A stretch of DNA of 64,000 bases from Mobula hypostoma (taxonomy: Eukaryota): positions 62,746,001-62,810,000 of the forward strand of contig NC_086108.1 in the NCBI RefSeq assembly GCF_963921235.1. The letters are read 5' to 3'. The notes below the pieces were generated by a model that had not been told where the DNA came from, searched no databases, and saw nothing but the letters and a program-made list of their open reading frames with translations. Shown in pieces: positions 20,720 to 33,036 of this stretch (position 1 is its first letter; the number at the start of each line of letters is the position of its first letter). Both the position numbers and the translations under genes were made by a program.

Positions 20720-20811
20720 GAGTCATAGAAAACAACAGCACAGAAATAGGCCCTTCAGCCATTCAGCCCATGCTGCCCCATTTAAACTGATTAGTCCCAT
20801 CGATCTGCACC
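20720..20811 (-). mobile_element. CR1 3' UTR split by the Gypsy insertion
   Basis: Sequence continues at 25321 after the second TSD copy. Confidence 0.8.
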
Positions 20812-21040
20812 TGAAGCACCTTCAATTACTCCAAAAGACTGAGGTTTGGTAAAATACTGAAAGACTTTTATTCGCTGTACAATATGACCTCCACAGTGAA
20901 TGTCTGCCCCCGGACTGAGGGGGAGGGGCAAGGCGAACACCTTTATACAGGACTCTGTGGGAGGAGCCACAGGGGCAGTCAGCAGAGGAGTGTGTCCAGA
21001 CAGGTAACCGAGTTACAACATATATACATGGTTTACCACA
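20812..21040 (-). repeat. 3' LTR of Gypsy element
   Basis: Direct repeat of 25086-25315; PPT aaaaaaggaggggtgaa (minus strand, ~21041-21057) abuts it. Confidence 0.97.
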
Positions 21041-21109
21041 TTCACCCCTCCTTTTTTAAAAAAGAGTCCCGCGGGGTGAAGTGACTGACAATATTTACAA
21101 GAAGTATAT

Positions 21110-23434
21110 TTACAGGTTAAGTCTATCAGGCGGTCGAGTCCGTCGCTGTGATCTACGTAGCACCGGCGGTGATTGCACCGGCGATGGCGGATGTGCTGCC
21201 TCCGGCCTGACTTCAGGTGCCAGCACGTTAGGCGTCGGTAATCCCTCGTGCGTGTGCGTCGCGCCCGGTATGGGAGTGTCGTGTGGTGTCTGTATAGGGT
21301 TTGGGGTGCACGGTGTCTCGTAGGTACATACATTGGTGGGTACGGGGTCAATAGTCACCACGGAGTGTTCAGGGTAGGGGCCCGGAGCTCCTGCGGGCGC
21401 CAGGTCGCGGATGGAGACCGTGTCCTCCCGCCCATCAGGTAAAACCATGTAGGCATACTGGGGGTTCGCATGAAGTAAGTGAACCCTCTCGACTATCGGG
21501 GAGTATTTATTGCTCCTCACATGTTTCCGGAGCAGCACTGGCCCCGGGGACGTCAGCCAAGATGGTAGGGTGGTTCCAGTGGTCGACTTTCTGGGAAAAG
21601 AAAAGAGCTGCCCATGAGGGGTGGCATTGGTGGCCGTGCATACCAAGGAGTGGATGGAGTGGAGTGCCTCAGGAAGGACCTCCTGCCAGCGGGAGACCGG
21701 CAGTCCCTTTGACCTGAGGGCTAAGAGTGTGGCTTTCCACACTGTGCCATTCTCCTTCTCTACCTGTCCATTCCCCCGGGGATTATAACTCGTGGTCCTA
21801 CTGGTTGCAATTCCCCTAGCCAGTAGATATTGGCGCAGCTCGTCACTCATAAACGAGGACCCTCTGTCACTGTGGATATAGCATGGGTATCCGAACAGAG
21901 TGAAGAGCTTGCGCAGGGCTTTTATAACAGACATGTTAGTGGTGTCGGGGCAGGGGATGGCGAAGGGGAACCGCGAGTACTCGTCAATTACGTTAAGAAA
22001 GTACACATTGCGGTCGGTGGAGGGAAGGGGGCCCATAAAGTCAACACTCAGTCGCTCAAAGGGGCGGGTGGCTTTGATGAGTGGTGCCTTTTCGGGTCGG
22101 TAGAAGTGCGGTTTGCACTCTGCGCAGACTTGGCAGTCCCTGGTCATCGTCCTGATCTCCTCAAGGGAGTAAGGCAGGTTCCGGGCTTTCACGAAGTGGA
22201 AAAGCCAGGTGACTCCTGGGTGGCAAAGGTCTACATGTAGGGCGTATAGCCGGTCGATCTGTGCGCTGGCGCATGTTCCCCGGGATAGGGCATCGGAGGG
22301 CTCGTTGAGCTTCCCAGGCCTGTACATGATGTCATAGTTGTAGGTGGAGAGTTCGATTCTCCACCTCAGAATTTTATCATTTTTGATTTTGCTCCGCTGC
22401 TGATTATTAAACATGAATGCGACTGAGCGCTGGTCGGTTAGCAGGGTGAACCTTTTGCCGGCAAGATAGTGCCTCCAGTGCCTTATAGCTTCCACTATGG
22501 CCTGGACCTCTTTCTCTACCGCAGAGTGACGAATTTCAGGGCCTTGAAGGGTACGGGAGAAGAACGCCACTGGTCTTCCTGCCTGGTTGAGGGTAGCAGC
22601 CAGCGCAAAGTCGGAGGCGTCACTCTCTACCTGGAAGGGAATGGCCTTATCCACCGCATGCATTGCTGCTTTGGCAATGTCCCCTTTTATGCGTTGAAGG
22701 CCGCGTGGGCCTCGGCAGAGAGGACTTGACCGGGGGCGGGCCTTGTCTGCATAGTTAGAGACCCATTGGGCGTAATATGAAAAGAAGCCCAGGCACCTTT
22801 TGAGGGCACTGAGGGTATTGGGAAGAGGGAGTTCCAACAAGGGGCGCATACGGTCGGGGTCAGGGCCCATGACTCCATTCTCCACGACACACCCAAGGAT
22901 AGCAAGTCGGGTGGTCCCAAATACACACTTGTCCTTGTTATAGGTGAGGTTGAAAGATTTGGCGGCTTGGAGAAATTTTTGGAGGTTGTTGTCATGATCC
23001 TGCTGGTCGTGACCGCAGATGGTGATGTTATCCAGATATGGGAACGTGGCCTTCAGTTGGCACTGGTCCACCATCCGGTCCATTGCCCTCTGGAAGACAG
23101 ATACACCATTCGTGACACCAAAGGGGACGCGCAGGAATTGATAAAGCCTGCCGTCCGCCTCGAAGGCAGTGTAAGGGCGGTCCTCCCGGCGGATGGGGAG
23201 CTGATGGTAAGCGGATTTTAGGTCTATGGTCGAGTACACCTTGTACTGTGCTATCTGATTGACCATATCCACGATGCGGGGTAGAGGGTACGCGTCGAGC
23301 TGCGTGAACCTATTGATGGTCTGGCTATAGTCCACGACCATCCTATTTTTCTCCCCGTTCCGAACAACGACCACCTGCGCCCTCCAAGGACTTGTGCTTG
23401 TCTCAATGACCCCCTCCCTGAGCAGTCGCTGCAC
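21110..23434 (-). CDS. pol: Gypsy pol: reverse transcriptase, RNase H, integrase
   Basis: RT: SPW, DAYPLPRI, IDLKSAYHQ, VPFGV, YLDN; RH: VESDAS, EKE, TDQ, DALSR; IN: H..H..CQVC, VDFMGP, HSDRG, GNGQVEK. Locally frame-scrambled near 22690-22735; true N-terminus lies upstream across frameshifts. Confidence 0.95.
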   Translation of the reverse strand: MQRLLREGVIETSTSPWRAQVVVVRNGEKNRMVVDYSQTINRFTQLDAYPLPRIVDMVNQIAQYKVYSTIDLKSAYHQLPIRREDRPYTAFEADGRLYQFLRVPFGVTNGVSVFQRAMDRMVDQCQLKATFPYLDNITICGHDQQDHDNNLQKFLQAAKSFNLTYNKDKCVFGTTRLAILGCVVENGVMGPDPDRMRPLLELPLPNTLSALKRCLGFFSYYAQWVSNYADKARPRSSPLCRGPRGLQRIKGDIAKAAMHAVDKAIPFQVESDASDFALAATLNQAGRPVAFFSRTLQGPEIRHSAVEKEVQAIVEAIRHWRHYLAGKRFTLLTDQRSVAFMFNNQQRSKIKNDKILRWRIELSTYNYDIMYRPGKLNEPSDALSRGTCASAQIDRLYALHVDLCHPGVTWLFHFVKARNLPYSLEEIRTMTRDCQVCAECKPHFYRPEKAPLIKATRPFERLSVDFMGPLPSTDRNVYFLNVIDEYSRFPFAIPCPDTTNMSVIKALRKLFTLFGYPCYIHSDRGSSFMSDELRQYLLARGIATSRTTSYNPRGNGQVEKENGTVWKATLLALRSKGLPVSRWQEVLPEALHSIHSLVCTATNATPHGQLFSFPRKSTTGTTLPSWLTSPGPVLLRKHVRSNKYSPIVERVHLLHANPQYAYMVLPDGREDTVSIRDLAPAGAPGPYPEHSVVTIDPVPTNVCTYETPCTPNPIQTPHDTPIPGATHTHEGLPTPNVLAPEVRPEAAHPPSPVQSPPVLRRSQRRTRPPDRLNL

Positions 23435-23509
23435 CTCCGACTTAATGAAGGCTCTGTCCCCCTGCGCTGTACCTCCTGCTTTTAGTTGCCACAGGTTTAC
23501 AGTCGGGGG

Positions 23510-25059
23510 TCAGGTTGGCGAACAGCGGTGGGGGAGGGATCCTGAGGGTGGAGAGGCCGCAAGTGGTGTCGGTAGTGTGGCAGTTGGCATGATGTTGGGT
23601 GGGATACGCGGGTCGGTGTGTGTGTGTGTGGTCAGTAGCGGGGTACGTGACATATCTCTACAAAACAGGGGATTTATGACAGTAATTGGCGGGAGGGGCC
23701 CATCATACTTCATTGTCACGCTTTTCAGGTGGCTCTGGAAGTCCAACCCCAACAGCACAGGGGCACACAGTTGAGGCAAGACCAGTAACGTAAAGTCCCG
23801 ATATTCTGTGCCCTGCACCACTGGTGTCGCTACACAACCCCCCCGGATGTCTGTTGTATGCGACCTGGAGGCCATGGTGACCCTCCGACTTACCGGCCGT
23901 ATCATGAGTCCAGAATGCTGCACCGTGGCCGGGTGGATAAAACTCTCTGTGCTGCCTGTGTCAAACAGGCAGCTTGTCCTGTGCCCCTCCACCAGGATGT
24001 CCATCATTGACCTTGCGAGCTGGTGGGGAGAGCTTTGGTCGAGGGTCACGGAAGCCAGGGTGGGGTCGCTGTCTTGGTCCAGCGTGGTGGGGTGCCCCGT
24101 GAGCACTCGTTGGTTGTAGGCGGTGGGAGGTGGCACCGACCAAGATGGTCGCCCCCATGTCTCGCACGTGGTGGTGGCGTGCAGGGAAGATGGTGGCAGG
24201 GAAGATGGCAGCCTCCATGTCTCGCACGTGGTGGCAGTGTGCAGGTAAGATGGCGACCCCCATGTCTTGCACGCGGCGCTGCTCGATCCCGCTCGCGGTT
24301 TTGATTTACAGACCTTGGCGAAGTGGTCCTTCTTTCCGCAGCTGGAACAGGTAGCTTGTTGGGCCGGGCAGCGTTTCCGGGGGTGCTTCTCCAGTCCGCA
24401 GAAGCAGCACTTCGCGGACTCGCGACTGGCGGCAGCCGAGGTCGATTCGCCGGCAGGTTGCGGGGTCTGCGGCACCCATGAGGCCATCGGGGGATCGCGT
24501 GCCTGGAGAGCCTCGGAGTTATGCAGAGCGGCCTCCAACGTATCAGCCAGCTCCATCGCCGAATTTAGGGTAAGATCGGCTTTTTCCAGCAGCCGCTGGC
24601 GCACGTACACTGACCTGGTCCCCATGACGAAGGCGTCTCTCACTAGGAGTTCTGCATGCTGCGCCACCGTCAGCTCCTGGCAATTGCAGGCTCGCATGAG
24701 TGTCTGTAGGGCCTGCACAAACTCAGCACTCGATTCCCCGGGGCGTTGTTGCCGTGTCGCTAAGCGGTCCCGAGCATAGACACTGTTTATCGGTGCCAAG
24801 CATAGACACTGTTTATCGGCCGCAGGTATTGTCTTTTGAGTGCGTTCATTGCGCCGTTGTAGCTCGGCTGGTCTCTGATCAGCGAATAGACCCATGGACT
24901 GACCCTGGAGAGTAGAACTCTGCGCTTCGCTACGGGGTCGGTCGCTTTAATCTCCTCTAGATACGCTTTGAAGCAGGCCAGCCAGAGTTCGAAAGCGTTT
25001 CCAGCTTCAGGTGTTTGCAGATCGAGGTCTAATTTTTCTGGTCTCAGGGCCTGTTCCAT
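23510..25059 (-). pseudogene. gag: Gypsy gag-protease, interrupted by a 26-nt duplication
   Basis: ORFs 24787-25059 and 23510-24895 join into one frame if 26 nt at ~24773-24819 are removed; zinc knuckles CFCGLEKHPRKRC and CSSCGKKDHFAKVC; protease LFDTGS. Confidence 0.9.
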
Positions 25060-25085
25060 GTTTTAAAACGTACAGCGAATAAAAT

Positions 25086-25315
25086 TGAAGCACCTTCAAT
25101 TACTCCAAAAGACTGAGGTTTGGTAAAATACTGAAAGACTTTTATTCGCTGTACAATATGACCTCCACAGTGAATGTCTGCCCCCGGACTGAGGGGGGAG
25201 GGGTAAGGCAAACACCTTTATACAGGACTCTGTGGGAGGAGCCACAGGGGCAGTCAGCAGAGGGGTGTGACCAGACAGGTAACCGAGTTACAACATATAT
25301 ACATGGTTTACTACA
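25086..25315 (-). repeat. 5' LTR of Gypsy element (TATA 25222-25217, Inr near 25190, AATAAA 25146-25141)
   Basis: Minus strand TGTAGT...GCTTCA; TATAAA lies 32 nt upstream of a TCAGT initiator. Confidence 0.95.
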
Positions 25316-26019
25316 GCACCCAGACCATAGCCCTCCATACCTCTCCCATCCAAACTATCCAAATGTCCCTGAAGCGTTGAAATCGAAATCGCGTCCCCCA
25401 TTTGCGCTGGCAGCTCGCTCCATCCTCTCACCATCCTCTGAATGAAGAAGTTTCCCCTCATGTTCCCTCCCTTAAACATTTCACCTTTCTCTCTTAACCC
25501 ATGGCCTCTAGTTGTAGTCTCAACTAACCTCAGCGGAAAAAGCCTGCTTGCATTTACCTATTTATATCCCTCATAATTTTGTATAACTCTATCAAATTTC
25601 CCCTCAATCTTCTATGTTCTAGGGAATAAAGTTCCAACCTTTTCAATCTTTCCTTATAACTCAGGTCATCCAGTCCCAGCAACATCCTCTGTATTCTTTC
25701 AAACTTATTTGTATCTTTCCTGTAGGTAGGAGACCAAAACTGCACACAATACTCCAAATTGAGCCTTACCAATGTCTTGTACAACTTCAACATAACATCC
25801 CAACTCCTGTACACAATACTTGATCTATGAAGGCCAATGTGCTAAAAGCTTTCATAATGAAGCTATCTACGTGTGACACTACTTTCAATGAATTATGGAT
25901 CTGCATTCCCAGATCTCTTTATTCCACCACACTCCTCATTTACCTACTGTTCACTGTGTAAGACCTACCTTGGTTGGTCCTCCCAAAGAGCAACACCTCA
26001 CACTTGTCTGCATTAAACT

Positions 26020-26957
26020 CTTTCTTTTCTTTCTTTATTAATCTTTTTATTGATTTAAAAGGAACATAAATACAAACAGGAGGAGAATTATCTCATATAT
26101 GTATATATCATTAATCATGAAAATAGAGATTAAAATAGACACTATCAAAATTATACATAGTGTTAAGCTAGTGTATAATATACAATAAAAGAGAAAACAG
26201 CAATTCTTCTCTTATCAGTTCATGAAGAGGAAAGAAAAAGCTTTGAATTTTAAATGAAGAAAAAAAAGACCCCCACTACTTTTTTCCAAAAAGAGGGACT
26301 GGGCAGTCCATTCTGAGGATACGACCAGAAAAGAAAAAGACTTTCTGATCAGATCTAAAACTTCGAAAAAAAAATTTGGAAGAGTAATAAATCAAATCAA
26401 ATGAAAATATTGAATAAAAGGTCGCCAGATTTGCTCATTTTTAAAGGATGTATCAAATGTCTGACTTCTTATTTTCTCTAAACTTAAAGAGGACATAAAG
26501 GAGGAGAGCCAATAAAAGACCGTAGGTAATAAAGTTGAAAAGGCTATCGTATGTTGAGCAGAAGTAGGAATATTTCCTGGTTTCAATGGGGTAATCCCAA
26601 ATATTGCCGTAAGTAAATTAGGTTGTAGGTCCAGATCCAAGCCTTTTGATAATATTTTAAAAACATCTCTCCAAAAATTGTCTAGCTTTATACAAGACCA
26701 AAACATATGAGTTAAAGTGGCCACCTCAATATTACATCTGTCACAAATAAGGTTGATGTTGGAAAAAATACGTGCTAGTTTATCCTTTGACATATGGGCC
26801 CGATACACTACCTTGAACTGTATCAAGGAATGACGGGCACAAATAGATGAGTTATTAATCAAATGAAGAATTTTACTCCATTGATTATCTGAAAATGACT
26901 CTTGAATTTCCAATTCCCAAGCACATTTAATTTTATTGTTGGATATCATTTGTAAAT
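26020..26957 (-). mobile_element. 5'-truncated L1 LINE (ORF2 C-terminal CCHC domain)
   Basis: ORF 26392-26949 with ICARHSLIQFKVV..CDRC..TLTHMFWSC; A-rich tail at the left end; splits the CR1. Confidence 0.88.
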
Positions 26958-27669
26958 TCAGTGTCTAATCCAGTTTACTACCTTATCTTGAATGCCAAGT
27001 GACTGAACCTTCTTGACCAACCTCCCATGCAGGACCTTATCAAATGTCTTGCTGAAGTCCACGTAGACAATATATACTGCTTTTCTTTCATTGACTTTCC
27101 TTGTAACATCTTTGAAAAACTCTATAAGTTTGGTTTGACATGACCTACCACACACAAAATGATGCTGACTATCCTTAATTAATCCCTGTCTATCCAAACA
27201 TTCATCCAAAGTCTCTTAGAATAACTTTCCCACTACTGAAGTCGGGCTCACTGACCTATCATTTCCTGATTTATTTTTAGAGCCTATCTTAAACAATGGA
27301 ACAACATTTGTTATTCTCCAATCCTCCGGTACCTCATGGGTCGCTATGGATGATTTAATTATCTCTGCTGTGGCCCCTGCAGTTGTTGTATTTGCCACCC
27401 ACAGGGTCCGAGGGAACACCTTGTCAGGCCCTGGGGATTTATCCACTCTGATTTGCCTCAAGACATCAAACACCTCCACCTCTGTAATCTGTATAGGATC
27501 CATGACCTCGCTGCTGCTTTGCCTCACTTCTATGGATGCAGATTCCGTCTACTGAGTAAATACAAATGCAAACATTCCACTTAAGATCTCCCCCATCTCT
27601 TTTGGCTACATGCATAGATTAACATTCTGATCTTCCAGAGGACCTGTTTTGTCCCTTGCAGTCTCTTTG

Positions 27670-28234: not shown

Positions 28235-29497
28235 CCTTTTATTCTGACAGACCCTAGAGAGGATGGTCCTGGTTCAACCGAATCCCTGGTTAGATGAGAC
28301 CTCGATCCCCTACAGTTTGCCTAATAGGAGCACGTAGCAGTCAACGATGCTGTCATCTACCTACTCCCATTTGGATGAGGAGGACAGCACTGTGAGGATC
28401 GTGTTTTGATTTCTCAAGTGCCTTCAATACGACACAGCCCTCATTGCTGGGGGAAAGCTCTATTCAATGCAGGTTGGCACTTCCATTGTATCCTGGATGA
28501 TGGACTACCTGGCTGGCAGACCACAGTTTGTGTAGCTTCAGAATTGTGTGTCTGACATGGCTATAAGCAGCACTGGGGCCCCGCAAGGGGCTGTATTAGC
28601 TCCCTTCCTATTTACCCTGTATATCTCAGACTTTAGATACAACACTGAGTCATATCATCTGCTGAAATTCTCTGATGACTCAGCAATAGTTGGACAGGAT
28701 GGACAGGAGAATGAATCCAGGACCCTGGTAGAGGACTTTGCCAAATGGTGCAAGCTGAATCATCTGCAACTCAACATCAGTAAGACAAAGGAGATGGTGA
28801 TGGACTTTAGGAAGACTAAGCCTGCTATTGTTACTATTAATGGTGAGGATGTGGATGTGGTGAGGACCTACAAGTACCTGGGGATGCACCTGGATGACAG
28901 ACTTGAGTGGAGCACCAACATAGAGGCTGTGTACAAGAAGGGCCAGAGTCACTCTACTTCTTGAGGAGACTGAGGCCCTTTGTATGCAGGCCTCTCTCTC
29001 ACATGTTCTACCAGTCTGTTGTCACCAGTACAATGCTCTATGCAATGGTGTGCTGGGATAATGGCATCACCACGGGTGATGCGAACAAATTCAATAAACT
29101 GATTAGAAAGGCTGACTCTGTTATAGGAGTCAAACTGGGCTCACTGGAGCTTGTGGTGGAACAAAGGACCCTCTGGAAAATCCTGGCAATTCTGGACAAT
29201 GTTTCTCACCCTCTGCATGTCACATTTGGTGAACAGAGGAGCATTTTTAGTGATAGAGTAAGATAGATAGATACTTCATTGATTCCAAAAGAAATAGCAG
29301 TGTCACAGTAGCATTACAAGTGCACAAATATAAATATTAGAAGAGAAGTAGAAAGAATGAAAAAATAAGTTACCACTAACAGTCTAACAGGAGGGGGTCA
29401 TCACTTGCCCAGCTGTAGGTTGGCTCCTTATAGAGCCTAATGGCTGACAGAAAGAATGACCTCATTTAGTGCTCTTTGGAGCAGTGCAGTTGTCTTA
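28235..29497 (+). mobile_element. Rex1/Babar LINE copy 1 (RT) followed by an inverted 3' end (29261-29497)
   Basis: STGAPQGAVLAPFLFTLY..KFSDDSAIVG..LNISKTKEMVMDFR; 29261-29410 is the reverse complement of the tail type at 30770-30952. Confidence 0.85.
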
Positions 29498-30952
29498 AGT
29501 GAGAAGACGAGAAGGACTCTGGGGAAACTCAGACAAAGCAAAGCACTGGGACCGAATGCTGTGAACCCCAGGGTCATGAAGGAGTGTGCTGAGCTGTTGT
29601 GTGAAGTTCTCCAGCATATTTTTAATCTGAGTCTCAGCCTGGAAAGGGTCCCAACTGTGTGGAAGACATCATGTGTGGGCCTAGTACCTAAGCAGGGCCA
29701 ACCAAAAGTCTTGAATGACTAGTGTCCAGTGGCCATGACCTCACACATCCTGAGGACCCAAGAGAGGCTGGTCCTGGCTCACCTCCGACCCCCAGTCAGA
29801 TCAGCCCTCAATCAGTTGCAGTTTGACTGCTAGGAGCACATTGGAGTTGAAGTTGCTGTCATCTACCTGCTGAATAGAGCCTACTTCCGTTTGGATAAGC
29901 AGGACAGCACTGTGAGTATCATGCTTTTTTTATTTCTCAAGTGCCTTCAATACCACACAGCCCTCATTGCTGGGGGAAAAGCTCCATTCAATACGGGTTG
30001 GCACTTCCATTGTATCCTGGATAATGGGCTACCTGATGGGAAGGCCACAGTTTGCGTGGCTTCAGAGTTGAGTGTCAGATATGGCTATAAGCAGCACTGG
30101 AGTCCACAGGGACTGTATTGGCTCCCTTCCTGTTTACCCTGTATACCTCGGACTTTAGATACAACACTGAGTTATGTCATCTGCTGAAGTTCTCTGTAAC
30201 TCAGCAATAGTTGGGTATATAAAGGGAGGACAGGAGGATGAATACTGGGCTCTGGTGGAGGACTTTGTCAAATGATGCAAGCTGAATCACCTGCACCTCA
30301 ACATCGGTAAGACAAAGGAGATGGTGGTGGACTTTAGGAAGACTAAGCCTGCTCTGCTCCATGTTACTATTGATGGTGAGGGCCTACAAGTACCTGGGGG
30401 TGTACATGGATTACAGACTTAATTGGAGCACCAATACAGAGGCTGTGTACAAGAAGGGCCAGAGTTGCCTTTATTTCCTGTGGAGGCTGAGGTCCTTTGG
30501 AGTATGCAGGCATCCCCTTCACATGTTCTACCAGTCTGTTGTCGCCAGTACAATCCTCTACATGGTGGTGTGCTGGTGCAATGCAATCAACATGGGTGAA
30601 GCCAACAGGCTTAATAAACTGATTAGATAAGCTGGCTCTGTTATAGGAGTCAAACTGGGCACACTGGAGGCAGAACAAAAGACACGCTGGAAAATCCTGA
30701 CAACTTTGGACAATGCTTCTCACCCTCTGCATGCCATCCTGGCTGAACAGAGGAGTCAGCATGTTGTTGGGGAAGTGGCAACCCCTCCTGTTAGACTGTT
30801 AGTAACCTCTTTACCAGAACTCTGTTTAAGTTCTGTTTAGTTCTGTTTTATTTTTATATTCTTTCTTACTTCTCTTCTAATATTTGTATATCAGTCCACT
30901 TTAAAGCTACTGTGACATAATTTCCTTAGAGATCAATGAAGTATCTATCTAC
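29498..30952 (+). mobile_element. Rex1/Babar LINE copy 2
   Basis: KALGP..KECAELL..IFNLSL..WKTSC; homologous to copy 1; tail gatcaatgaagtatctatct. Confidence 0.85.
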
Positions 30953-32858: not shown

Positions 32859-33036
32859 ATACACTCAAAATGCTGGAGGAACTCAGTAGGCCAGGCAGCA
32901 TCTATGGAAAAAAGTTCTCGACCCAAAACATCGACCATATTTTTTACTATAGGTTCTGCCTGGCCTGCTGAGTTCCTCCAGCATTTTGTGTGTGTTACTT
33001 GGATTTCCAGCGTCTGCAGATTTTCTCTTGTTTGTG
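32859..33036. mobile_element. Penelope pseudo-LTR fold-back insertion
   Basis: Two pLTR pieces in opposite orientation; 14-bp TSD attacatt(c/t)gggaa at 32845-32858 and 33037-33050. Confidence 0.8.

Follow-up and report, generated by a model that had tools for sequence, protein, structure and literature searches.

The window analysed here is a stretch of 64,000 nucleotides from Mobula hypostoma, and on its minus strand lies a broken 4.5-kb Gypsy element (25315-20812). Directly behind its 5′ LTR the element carries a segment complementary to that same LTR. The features are listed in the 5′ to 3′ order of the minus strand.

25316..25320 (-): target-site duplication GGTGC, 5′ side
25086..25315 (-): 5′ LTR, 230 nt, TG..CA
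25217..25222 (-): predicted TATA box TATAAA, replaced by AATAAA in 22 of 86 copies
25186..25192 (-): predicted initiator (Inr) with +1 at 25190; distance to the TATA word 31-33 nt in 67 of 86 copies and 34 nt in a further one
25140..25154 (-): LTR arm, the predicted self-primer end; AATAAA at 25146-25141 and G at 25149, ten bases away from the arm's 3′ end
near 25140/25139 (-): predicted cut
25135..25139 (-): 5′ strand of P2, the second helix; reads GTCTT in this copy and GCCTT in the majority of copies, an RCCT motif across families
25092..25096 (-): 3′ strand of P2, AAGGT
25070..25084 (-): primer-binding-site position, 1 nt past the CA of the LTR and exactly complementary to the LTR arm
21110..25059 (-): gag-PR-RT-RNaseH-IN coding region, broken, with RT motif YLDN and no chromodomain
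21045..21057 (-): polypurine tract (PPT), followed by TGAA and then the 3′ LTR
20812..21040 (-): 3′ LTR, 229 nt, with arm and AATAAA as in the 5′ LTR and no downstream partner
20807..20811 (-): target-site duplication GGTGC, 3′ side

Ty3/Gypsy elements are recognised by TG..CA LTRs, a target-site duplication, a polypurine tract and the domain order PR-RT-RH-IN, all of which are present here. Pfam detects protease, RT, RNase H and integrase in the window ORFs, and the best solved relative is the Ty3 Gag-Pol (E 1.6e-59). The LTRs are identical at 224 of 229 aligned bases, with one gap in addition, and the copy is disrupted by a 26-nt tandem duplication in gag (24765-24816) and by a frame change near 23510. 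A chromodomain had not been evident in the preliminary description of this DNA; Pfam found none in the window ORFs and in two intact relatives, and the precomputed domains listed for 120 relatives include no chromo family. The linker between gag and protease (24142-24281) contains three 35-nt repeats, spaced 60 and 45 nt, which encode repeated TTCETW-like motifs.

On the 3′ side of the terminal CA of the LTR, the minus strand continues with a single A (25085), the 15-mer TTTTATTCGCTGTAC (25084-25070), GTTTTAAAAC and the gag ATG at 25059. The spacer between LTR and ATG comprises 26 nt and is devoid of TGG. Reverse-complemented, the 15-mer is identical to 25154-25140, and 55 nt separate the two arms. 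These details, together with the LTR end and the AATAAA of the arm, had been reported before and were all confirmed in the sequence. Perfect inverted repeats of at least 15 nt within 100 nt exist at only two places in the 64-kb window, the fold-back being one of them, so that it cannot be ascribed to chance.

A DNA search of the M. hypostoma genome delivered 2,303 first-look candidates, and the 40 that were scored show 96-100% identity across the LTR-gag junction. The layout is present in all 29 pattern-matched loci (29 of 30 loci retrieved). Gag searches of this genome brought in older subfamilies, and protein searches with two distant Gag N-termini yielded, among the loci retrieved from it, subfamilies of the same family only. 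The 3′ ends were obtained for 80 of 85 copies; 64 had both LTRs and 16 were excluded (no 3′ LTR found in 13, three unmappable). Variants on which both LTRs agree were taken as inherited, with positions numbered starting at the arm's 3′ end. Among the 64 copies, arm and primer site at position 8 read G/G in 41 and T/T in 6, with 10 discordant. The corresponding numbers are A/A 43, T/T 16 and 2 discordant at position 11, and G/G 39, T/T 18 and 5 discordant at position 15, where three resemble an intermediate subfamily. Beyond position 15 the pairing stops, with position 16 paired in 13 of 63 copies and position 17 in 0 of 59. Single copies whose primer site follows their own 5′ arm and not the 3′ arm were not used as evidence; these few cases lie at CpG, and independent decay or conversion is possible.

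For the analysis of covariation, 20 copies spanning the M. hypostoma subfamilies were picked by hand. Within the 13-pair helix 99.6% of the cells pair and three pairs have changed on both sides. Covariation amounts to 0.165 versus 0.069 in shuffles that ignore kinship (equalled in 0 of 500), and slid controls give at most 0.05. The number of pairs with double changes in this 20-copy set is not above the shuffle expectation (396 of 500). The check for compensatory changes between primer site and LTR, suggested in the preliminary description, thus had a positive outcome: three substitutions are compensated on both arms among the subfamilies, and at least four primer-site variants exist in this one genome, each matching its own LTR. 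Because the subfamilies compensate substitutions on both arms, these sequences argue strongly against a fixed tRNA primer.

Relatives of the element with 51-92% identity in pol were found in rays, catshark, hagfish, cockroach, whipworm, liver fluke and sea anemone (Trichuris, Periplaneta, Myxine, Narcine and Actinostola are among the named protein sources), and 1,456 of 7,999 scored proteins pass 1e-100. Most intact relatives consist of one ORF of some 1,150-1,340 aa. A search of IMG/VR gave no relatives. The named species are represented by proteins, and the fold-back was followed in the M. hypostoma genome and in metagenome and MAG contigs. From 80 metagenome loci and seven MAG contigs we obtained 32 loci with a Gag start; after removal of two without usable upstream DNA and of nine second family members, 21 families were left, or 22 with that of the window. 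The seven MAG contigs (L111-L117) carry Gypsy sequences within prokaryote assemblies, most likely owing to contamination of the bins by the animal host. A permuted order of pol, PPT, single LTR and gag was observed at L034, L041, L049, L054 and L113, as in collapsed assemblies, tandem copies or one-LTR circles.

With the motif CA-N-TTT as anchor, an uninterrupted run of 13-18 Watson-Crick pairs joins the primer site to the family's own LTR in 16 of the 22 families, which are related (three are close sisters) and hence not independent counts; most of their LTRs are dissimilar to each other. In all 16 intact families the pairing begins 1 nt past the CA, an LTR end that is corroborated by a 3′ LTR in the window element and in 6 of the 21 other representatives. 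The six imperfect families (three with 11-16 bp and one mismatch, one with 10 bp, two with none) may be decayed copies. When the site of one family was combined with the LTR of another, 13 pairs were reached in 2 of 462 cases, both within the sister pair L034/L035. Loops between arm and site measure 24-68 nt, and the mean pair probability predicted for the 5′ arm is 0.87-0.98 in the 16 families. The pairing ends abruptly, one G-U being included in the 17 non-Watson-Crick cells at positions 14-16; the lack of G-U within the first 13 pairs is partly circular, since the 16 families were selected by perfect pairing. In eight loci (L032, L031, L035, L036, L046, L057, L065 and the window) the sequence next to the polypurine tract is AA and then TG. 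At the right end stands CA-AT, or less commonly CA-TT or CA-GT, and the element termini therefore do not mirror each other.

The sequence signature of self-priming, namely an LTR complement of at least 10 nt that starts 0-5 nt past the 5′ LTR in the absence of a tRNA site, is present in the clade, and on this comparison the fold-back is a clade-wide feature. Relatives with a TGG primer-binding site or without complementarity had been named in advance as evidence against self-priming. TGG occurs at the primer site in 0 of 22 families, no other primer site was found in the 15-38 nt upstream of the gag start, and at least 11 bp form in 19 of 22 families if one mismatch is allowed. Together with the perfect stems and the compensated changes, the comparison strongly supports the self-priming that had been proposed from the window alone.

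The junction behind the arm is conserved as well. All 16 intact families have AAA at the 3′ end of the arm, 15 of them a G ten bases from this end, and R, C, C and T follow directly after the arm in 15, 15, 14 and 13 families, respectively. The G keeps its register with the arm end in TAAA and TAAAA arms alike, and therefore tracks the predicted primer end and not the hexamer. The RCCT usually pairs with a downstream AGGY, and 15 of 19 families have a P2 of 4 bp or more at offset 0. The mean length of P2 is 4.1 bp against a shuffled mean of 3.1 bp (0 of 1000) and 3.7 bp for helices at control offsets. In 10 of the 20 hand-picked M. hypostoma copies one pair of P2 does not form, and P2 is a weak helix. 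The third duplex of the Tf1 'pretzel' is absent, with values of 6.1 within families and 6.1 across families.

In the M. hypostoma copies, TATA word and initiator are spaced 31-34 nt in 68 of 86 cases, and the distance from initiator to arm varies, mostly between 36 and 39 nt. These promoter motifs predict a transcription start about 36 nt upstream of the arm, which would then occupy +37 to +51. LTRs with AATAAA at the TATA position (22 of 86 copies) hold two AATAAA words. An alternative initiator-like word, GTCATA or GTCACA and in most young copies GTCGTA, lies 5 nt upstream of the arm. That the primer segment is internal, as already suggested for the window, is supported by the spacing in M. 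hypostoma, with the start itself being a prediction. Most families outside this genome have no TATA box, so the internal position does not serve as evidence for the clade in general. Six public runs, which are contigs of uncertain type, have neither start nor end peaks and, among the alignments listed, no loose poly(A) end; they carry no information on transcription.

Self-priming from the LTR arm, all versions together, is the reading that we prefer on the basis of these sequences, with a probability of roughly four in five. Among its versions we lean slightly towards cleavage of the 5′ leader at AAA^RCC, by which an internal capped primer of about 50 nt would be freed. Transcription would start at the predicted site 25190. 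The arm would pair with the primer site, and the short helix RCCU..AGGY would begin directly after it; for both, the pairing potential is conserved in the clade. By analogy to Tf1, the RNase H of the element would cut the AAA^RCC junction, to within 1-2 nt; cutting of a self-primer by RT has a precedent (accessible part of PMC5341516). Minus-strand synthesis would copy the 55-nt loop and then jump to the 3′ end of the RNA, using an overlap of perhaps 10-30 nt between arm and poly(A) site. As the cut would have to precede the poly(A) site for this overlap to exist, the location of the arm beside the poly(A) signal may find its explanation here. Plus-strand synthesis would finally copy 13-18 nt of the primer and rewrite the primer site as its exact complement, and such rewriting could account for both the pure Watson-Crick pairing and the fast compensation.

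A helix of structural function only, which conceals the poly(A) signal of the 5′ LTR or acts in packaging or translation while priming takes another route, is an unlikely alternative. The predicted folds of the window family are in line with masking: the 5′ leader reaches z=-3.64 (equalled by 0 of 200 shuffles) with AAUAAA wholly paired, whereas in the 3′ context the fold of this LTR stretch does not surpass shuffles (z=0.68) and the last three bases of the signal are unpaired. All arms end in NNTAAA, and a hairpin over AAUAAA represses 5′ polyadenylation in HIV-1 (PMC2645353, as far as accessible). AATAAA or ATTAAA stands in the arm of 14 of 22 families by the primer-site strand and of 9 of 19 by direct reading of the arm. 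However, 8 of 22 families pair with GTTAAA, TTTAAA or GGTAAA in the arm, so masking is not a universal reason for the helix; in two of these (L035 and L036) the loop holds a canonical hexamer in its place, and in L114 arm and loop each hold one. Masking also gives no reason for the onset 1 nt past the CA, for the avoidance of wobble pairs or for the replacement of the tRNA site, and the leader offers no alternative primer site. Of the earlier masking proposal there remains a fit to the window family, not a general rule. As a second role of the helix, in families whose arm contains AAUAAA or AUUAAA, the modelled folds make masking a tentative suggestion that we rate somewhat short of even.

Three further routes of priming differ in where the primer comes from. 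Plain self-priming of the Tf1 type, with transcription starting at or a few bases before the arm and the first 15-20 nt of the RNA as primer, is about as improbable as the purely structural helix. It would agree with the initiator-like word just upstream of the arm and with a pairing length of 13-18 nt, which could mark the 5′ end of a primer, and in Tf1, Tf2 and Tosmo the start site is indeed the 5′ end of the self-primer (bioRxiv 10.1101/2022.12.06.519325, accessible text). The conserved TATA-Inr pair nevertheless points 36-39 nt upstream, a TATA-like word with the spacing required for a start at the arm exists in just 1 of 22 families, and most arms start with a pyrimidine. Slightly less probable again is priming by the 3′-LTR copy of the arm at the end of the genomic RNA, its tail being trimmed or cut back to the helix. 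The arm is identical in both LTRs, and this route would likewise rewrite the primer site from the arm and make a leader cut unnecessary; but the 5′ arm lies at a distance of only 55 nt, and the prediction is that it pairs before the 3′ copy; we know of no precedent among LTR elements. Very improbable is a host tRNA half or other small RNA as primer, with the match to the LTR incidental. The covariation in these sequences already largely refutes it, given that the site variants within one genome and the differing sites across families each match their own LTR. In addition, TGG is missing and no Rfam match was obtained at E<=1, and nothing in favour of a host primer was found. The direct comparison with tRNA genes was a weak one: among 30 retrieved loci, which held Lys(TTT), Tyr and Leu types only, the best match of the primer site is 9 nt.

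The affiliation of the clade was addressed with RT-RNaseH trees. A quick tree of 86 rows contained the window element, 20 of the remaining 21 families (for L115 no segment was obtained), the two stemless ones included, and 26 database proteins; window element, families and proteins form one group with SH-aLRT 100% on a long stem. In a quick LG+G4 tree of 27 rows, where four fungal and vertebrate proteins stood in for the chromoviruses in place of Tf1 and sushi themselves, joining the clade with these chromovirus-type proteins was rejected (AU p=0.0127). Membership in the Tf1/sushi group is ruled out by this result against stand-ins together with the missing chromodomain. Joining the clade with two K02A2.6-like proteins was neither rejected nor demonstrated (p=0.32). 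The Gag of four intact relatives is nearest to two outgroup proteins, one of which is named K02A2.6-like, a neighbourhood that we take to be of Mag type; the Mag-like gag of the preliminary description is consistent with this to the extent that the latter assumption holds. Cigr-1 has LTRs of ~245 bp, one ORF of ~1,210 aa and a SURL-like Gag. By size and Gag type Cigr-1, whose clade is found in Ciona and also in molluscs and annelids, is a candidate affiliation of our clade, going by its description. In the accessible supplement of PMC6238403, Cigr-1 is placed under Mag. As far as accessible, the main texts of PMC6238403 and PMC8556966, which name the Cigr-1 and MolGy clades, do not mention the primer-binding site, and the accessible part of PMC2774666 does not mention Cigr, Tor2, a primer-binding site or self-priming.

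A further feature of the clade concerns the RT. In the window RT the motif reads YLDN and not YxDD (22975-22960 region, minus strand). YxDN was found in 95 of 123 motif matches among the 131 top proteins, intact ORFs included (9 had no match and two lie outside the clade), and N occurs in 2 of 97 matches among more distant proteins. The equivalent change in Ty1 retained activity in vitro, with kpol reduced 223-fold, and abolished transposition (PMC2148107, accessible part); a family bearing YxDN has nonetheless multiplied in the M. hypostoma genome. No paper turned up in our literature search for YLDN in connection with reverse transcriptase. We considered whether YxDN goes together with the fold-back and rejected this, as three fold-back families have YLDD (14 YxDN, 3 YLDD and 5 unread among 22 loci). 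The natural YxDN RT is a further oddity of this clade that can be put to the test.

Self-priming has so far been documented in fungal and vertebrate chromoviruses and predicted in two plant lineages. The clade shares with Tf1/Tf2 of Schizosaccharomyces pombe, Tj1 and the Tf1/sushi group a primer site beside the CA of the LTR that complements the element's own LTR, a further helix adjoining the predicted cut and a compact single-ORF layout (accessible parts of PMC4600332, PMC5341516 and bioRxiv 10.1101/2022.12.06.519325). Unlike the Tf1 group, it has no chromodomain, and its RT-RNaseH stands apart from the chromovirus stand-ins. The pairing of 13-18 bp is longer than the 11 bp of the Tf1 self-primer. 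Other differences from Tf1 are that the arm is predicted to be internal and not the 5′ end of the RNA, that it ends in NNTAAA resembling a poly(A) signal, that the third 'pretzel' duplex is missing and that the RT motif is mostly YxDN. Most likely, the clade works like Tf1 with a different geometry, outside the Tf1/sushi group. For Tcn1 (Gypsy) and TAR/Houba/Osr-1 (Copia) of plants, self-primers were predicted from LTR segments complementary to at least 10 nt starting 0-5 nt past the 5′ LTR (PMC6317226); this is the same kind of evidence as presented here, by a rule that our clade follows, in other lineages and hosts, and the accessible text of that source names no self-primers of animal non-chromovirus Gypsy elements. 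The HIV-1 polyA hairpin also covers AAUAAA (PMC2645353, in its accessible part), but there both arms lie inside the repeat and thus at both RNA ends, whereas in our clade the partner lies outside the LTR, at the primer site, so that the helix forms at the 5′ end only.

In the openly searchable literature we found no account of self-priming for an animal Gypsy clade outside the chromoviruses; this leaves aside subscription papers as well as GyDB and Repbase, and an earlier notice is possible. Some fish Gypsy families are reportedly noted as self-primed in Repbase. If the preferred reading is true, a separate and widespread animal clade would imply that self-priming arose again or is ancestral, and would bear on the order of hairpin and tRNA priming, a question raised in PMC3601003 (accessible part). 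A primer that lies internally and is coupled to the poly(A) signal would constitute a novel geometry, and would allow a compact discrimination of 5′ and 3′ LTR. The fullest version combines several claims: an independent, animal-wide origin of tRNA-free priming outside chromoviruses, in which a Gypsy clade of cnidarians, nematodes, flukes, insects, hagfish and cartilaginous fish would cut its leader after the poly(A) signal at G(-10)..AAA^RCCU, prime with a capped internal fragment and hide the 5′ poly(A) signal in the helix, with most members having asparagine in place of the second catalytic aspartate of the RT. As a whole we consider this combination doubtful. LTR elements are targeted by 3′ tRNA fragments through their tRNA site (PMC7472051, accessible part), and self-primed elements would have no such site. 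Since the family is large in M. hypostoma, its RNA ends are open to direct mapping.

Other repeats accompany the element in the window. A weak zf-RVT match (E 4e-4) at 26392-26964 is probably a LINE fragment, and 25320-25800 and 28250-29980 have the appearance of LINE pieces. At 32866-32988 a perfect 21-nt inverted repeat with imperfect inward pairing resembles a small foldback or MITE-type repeat.
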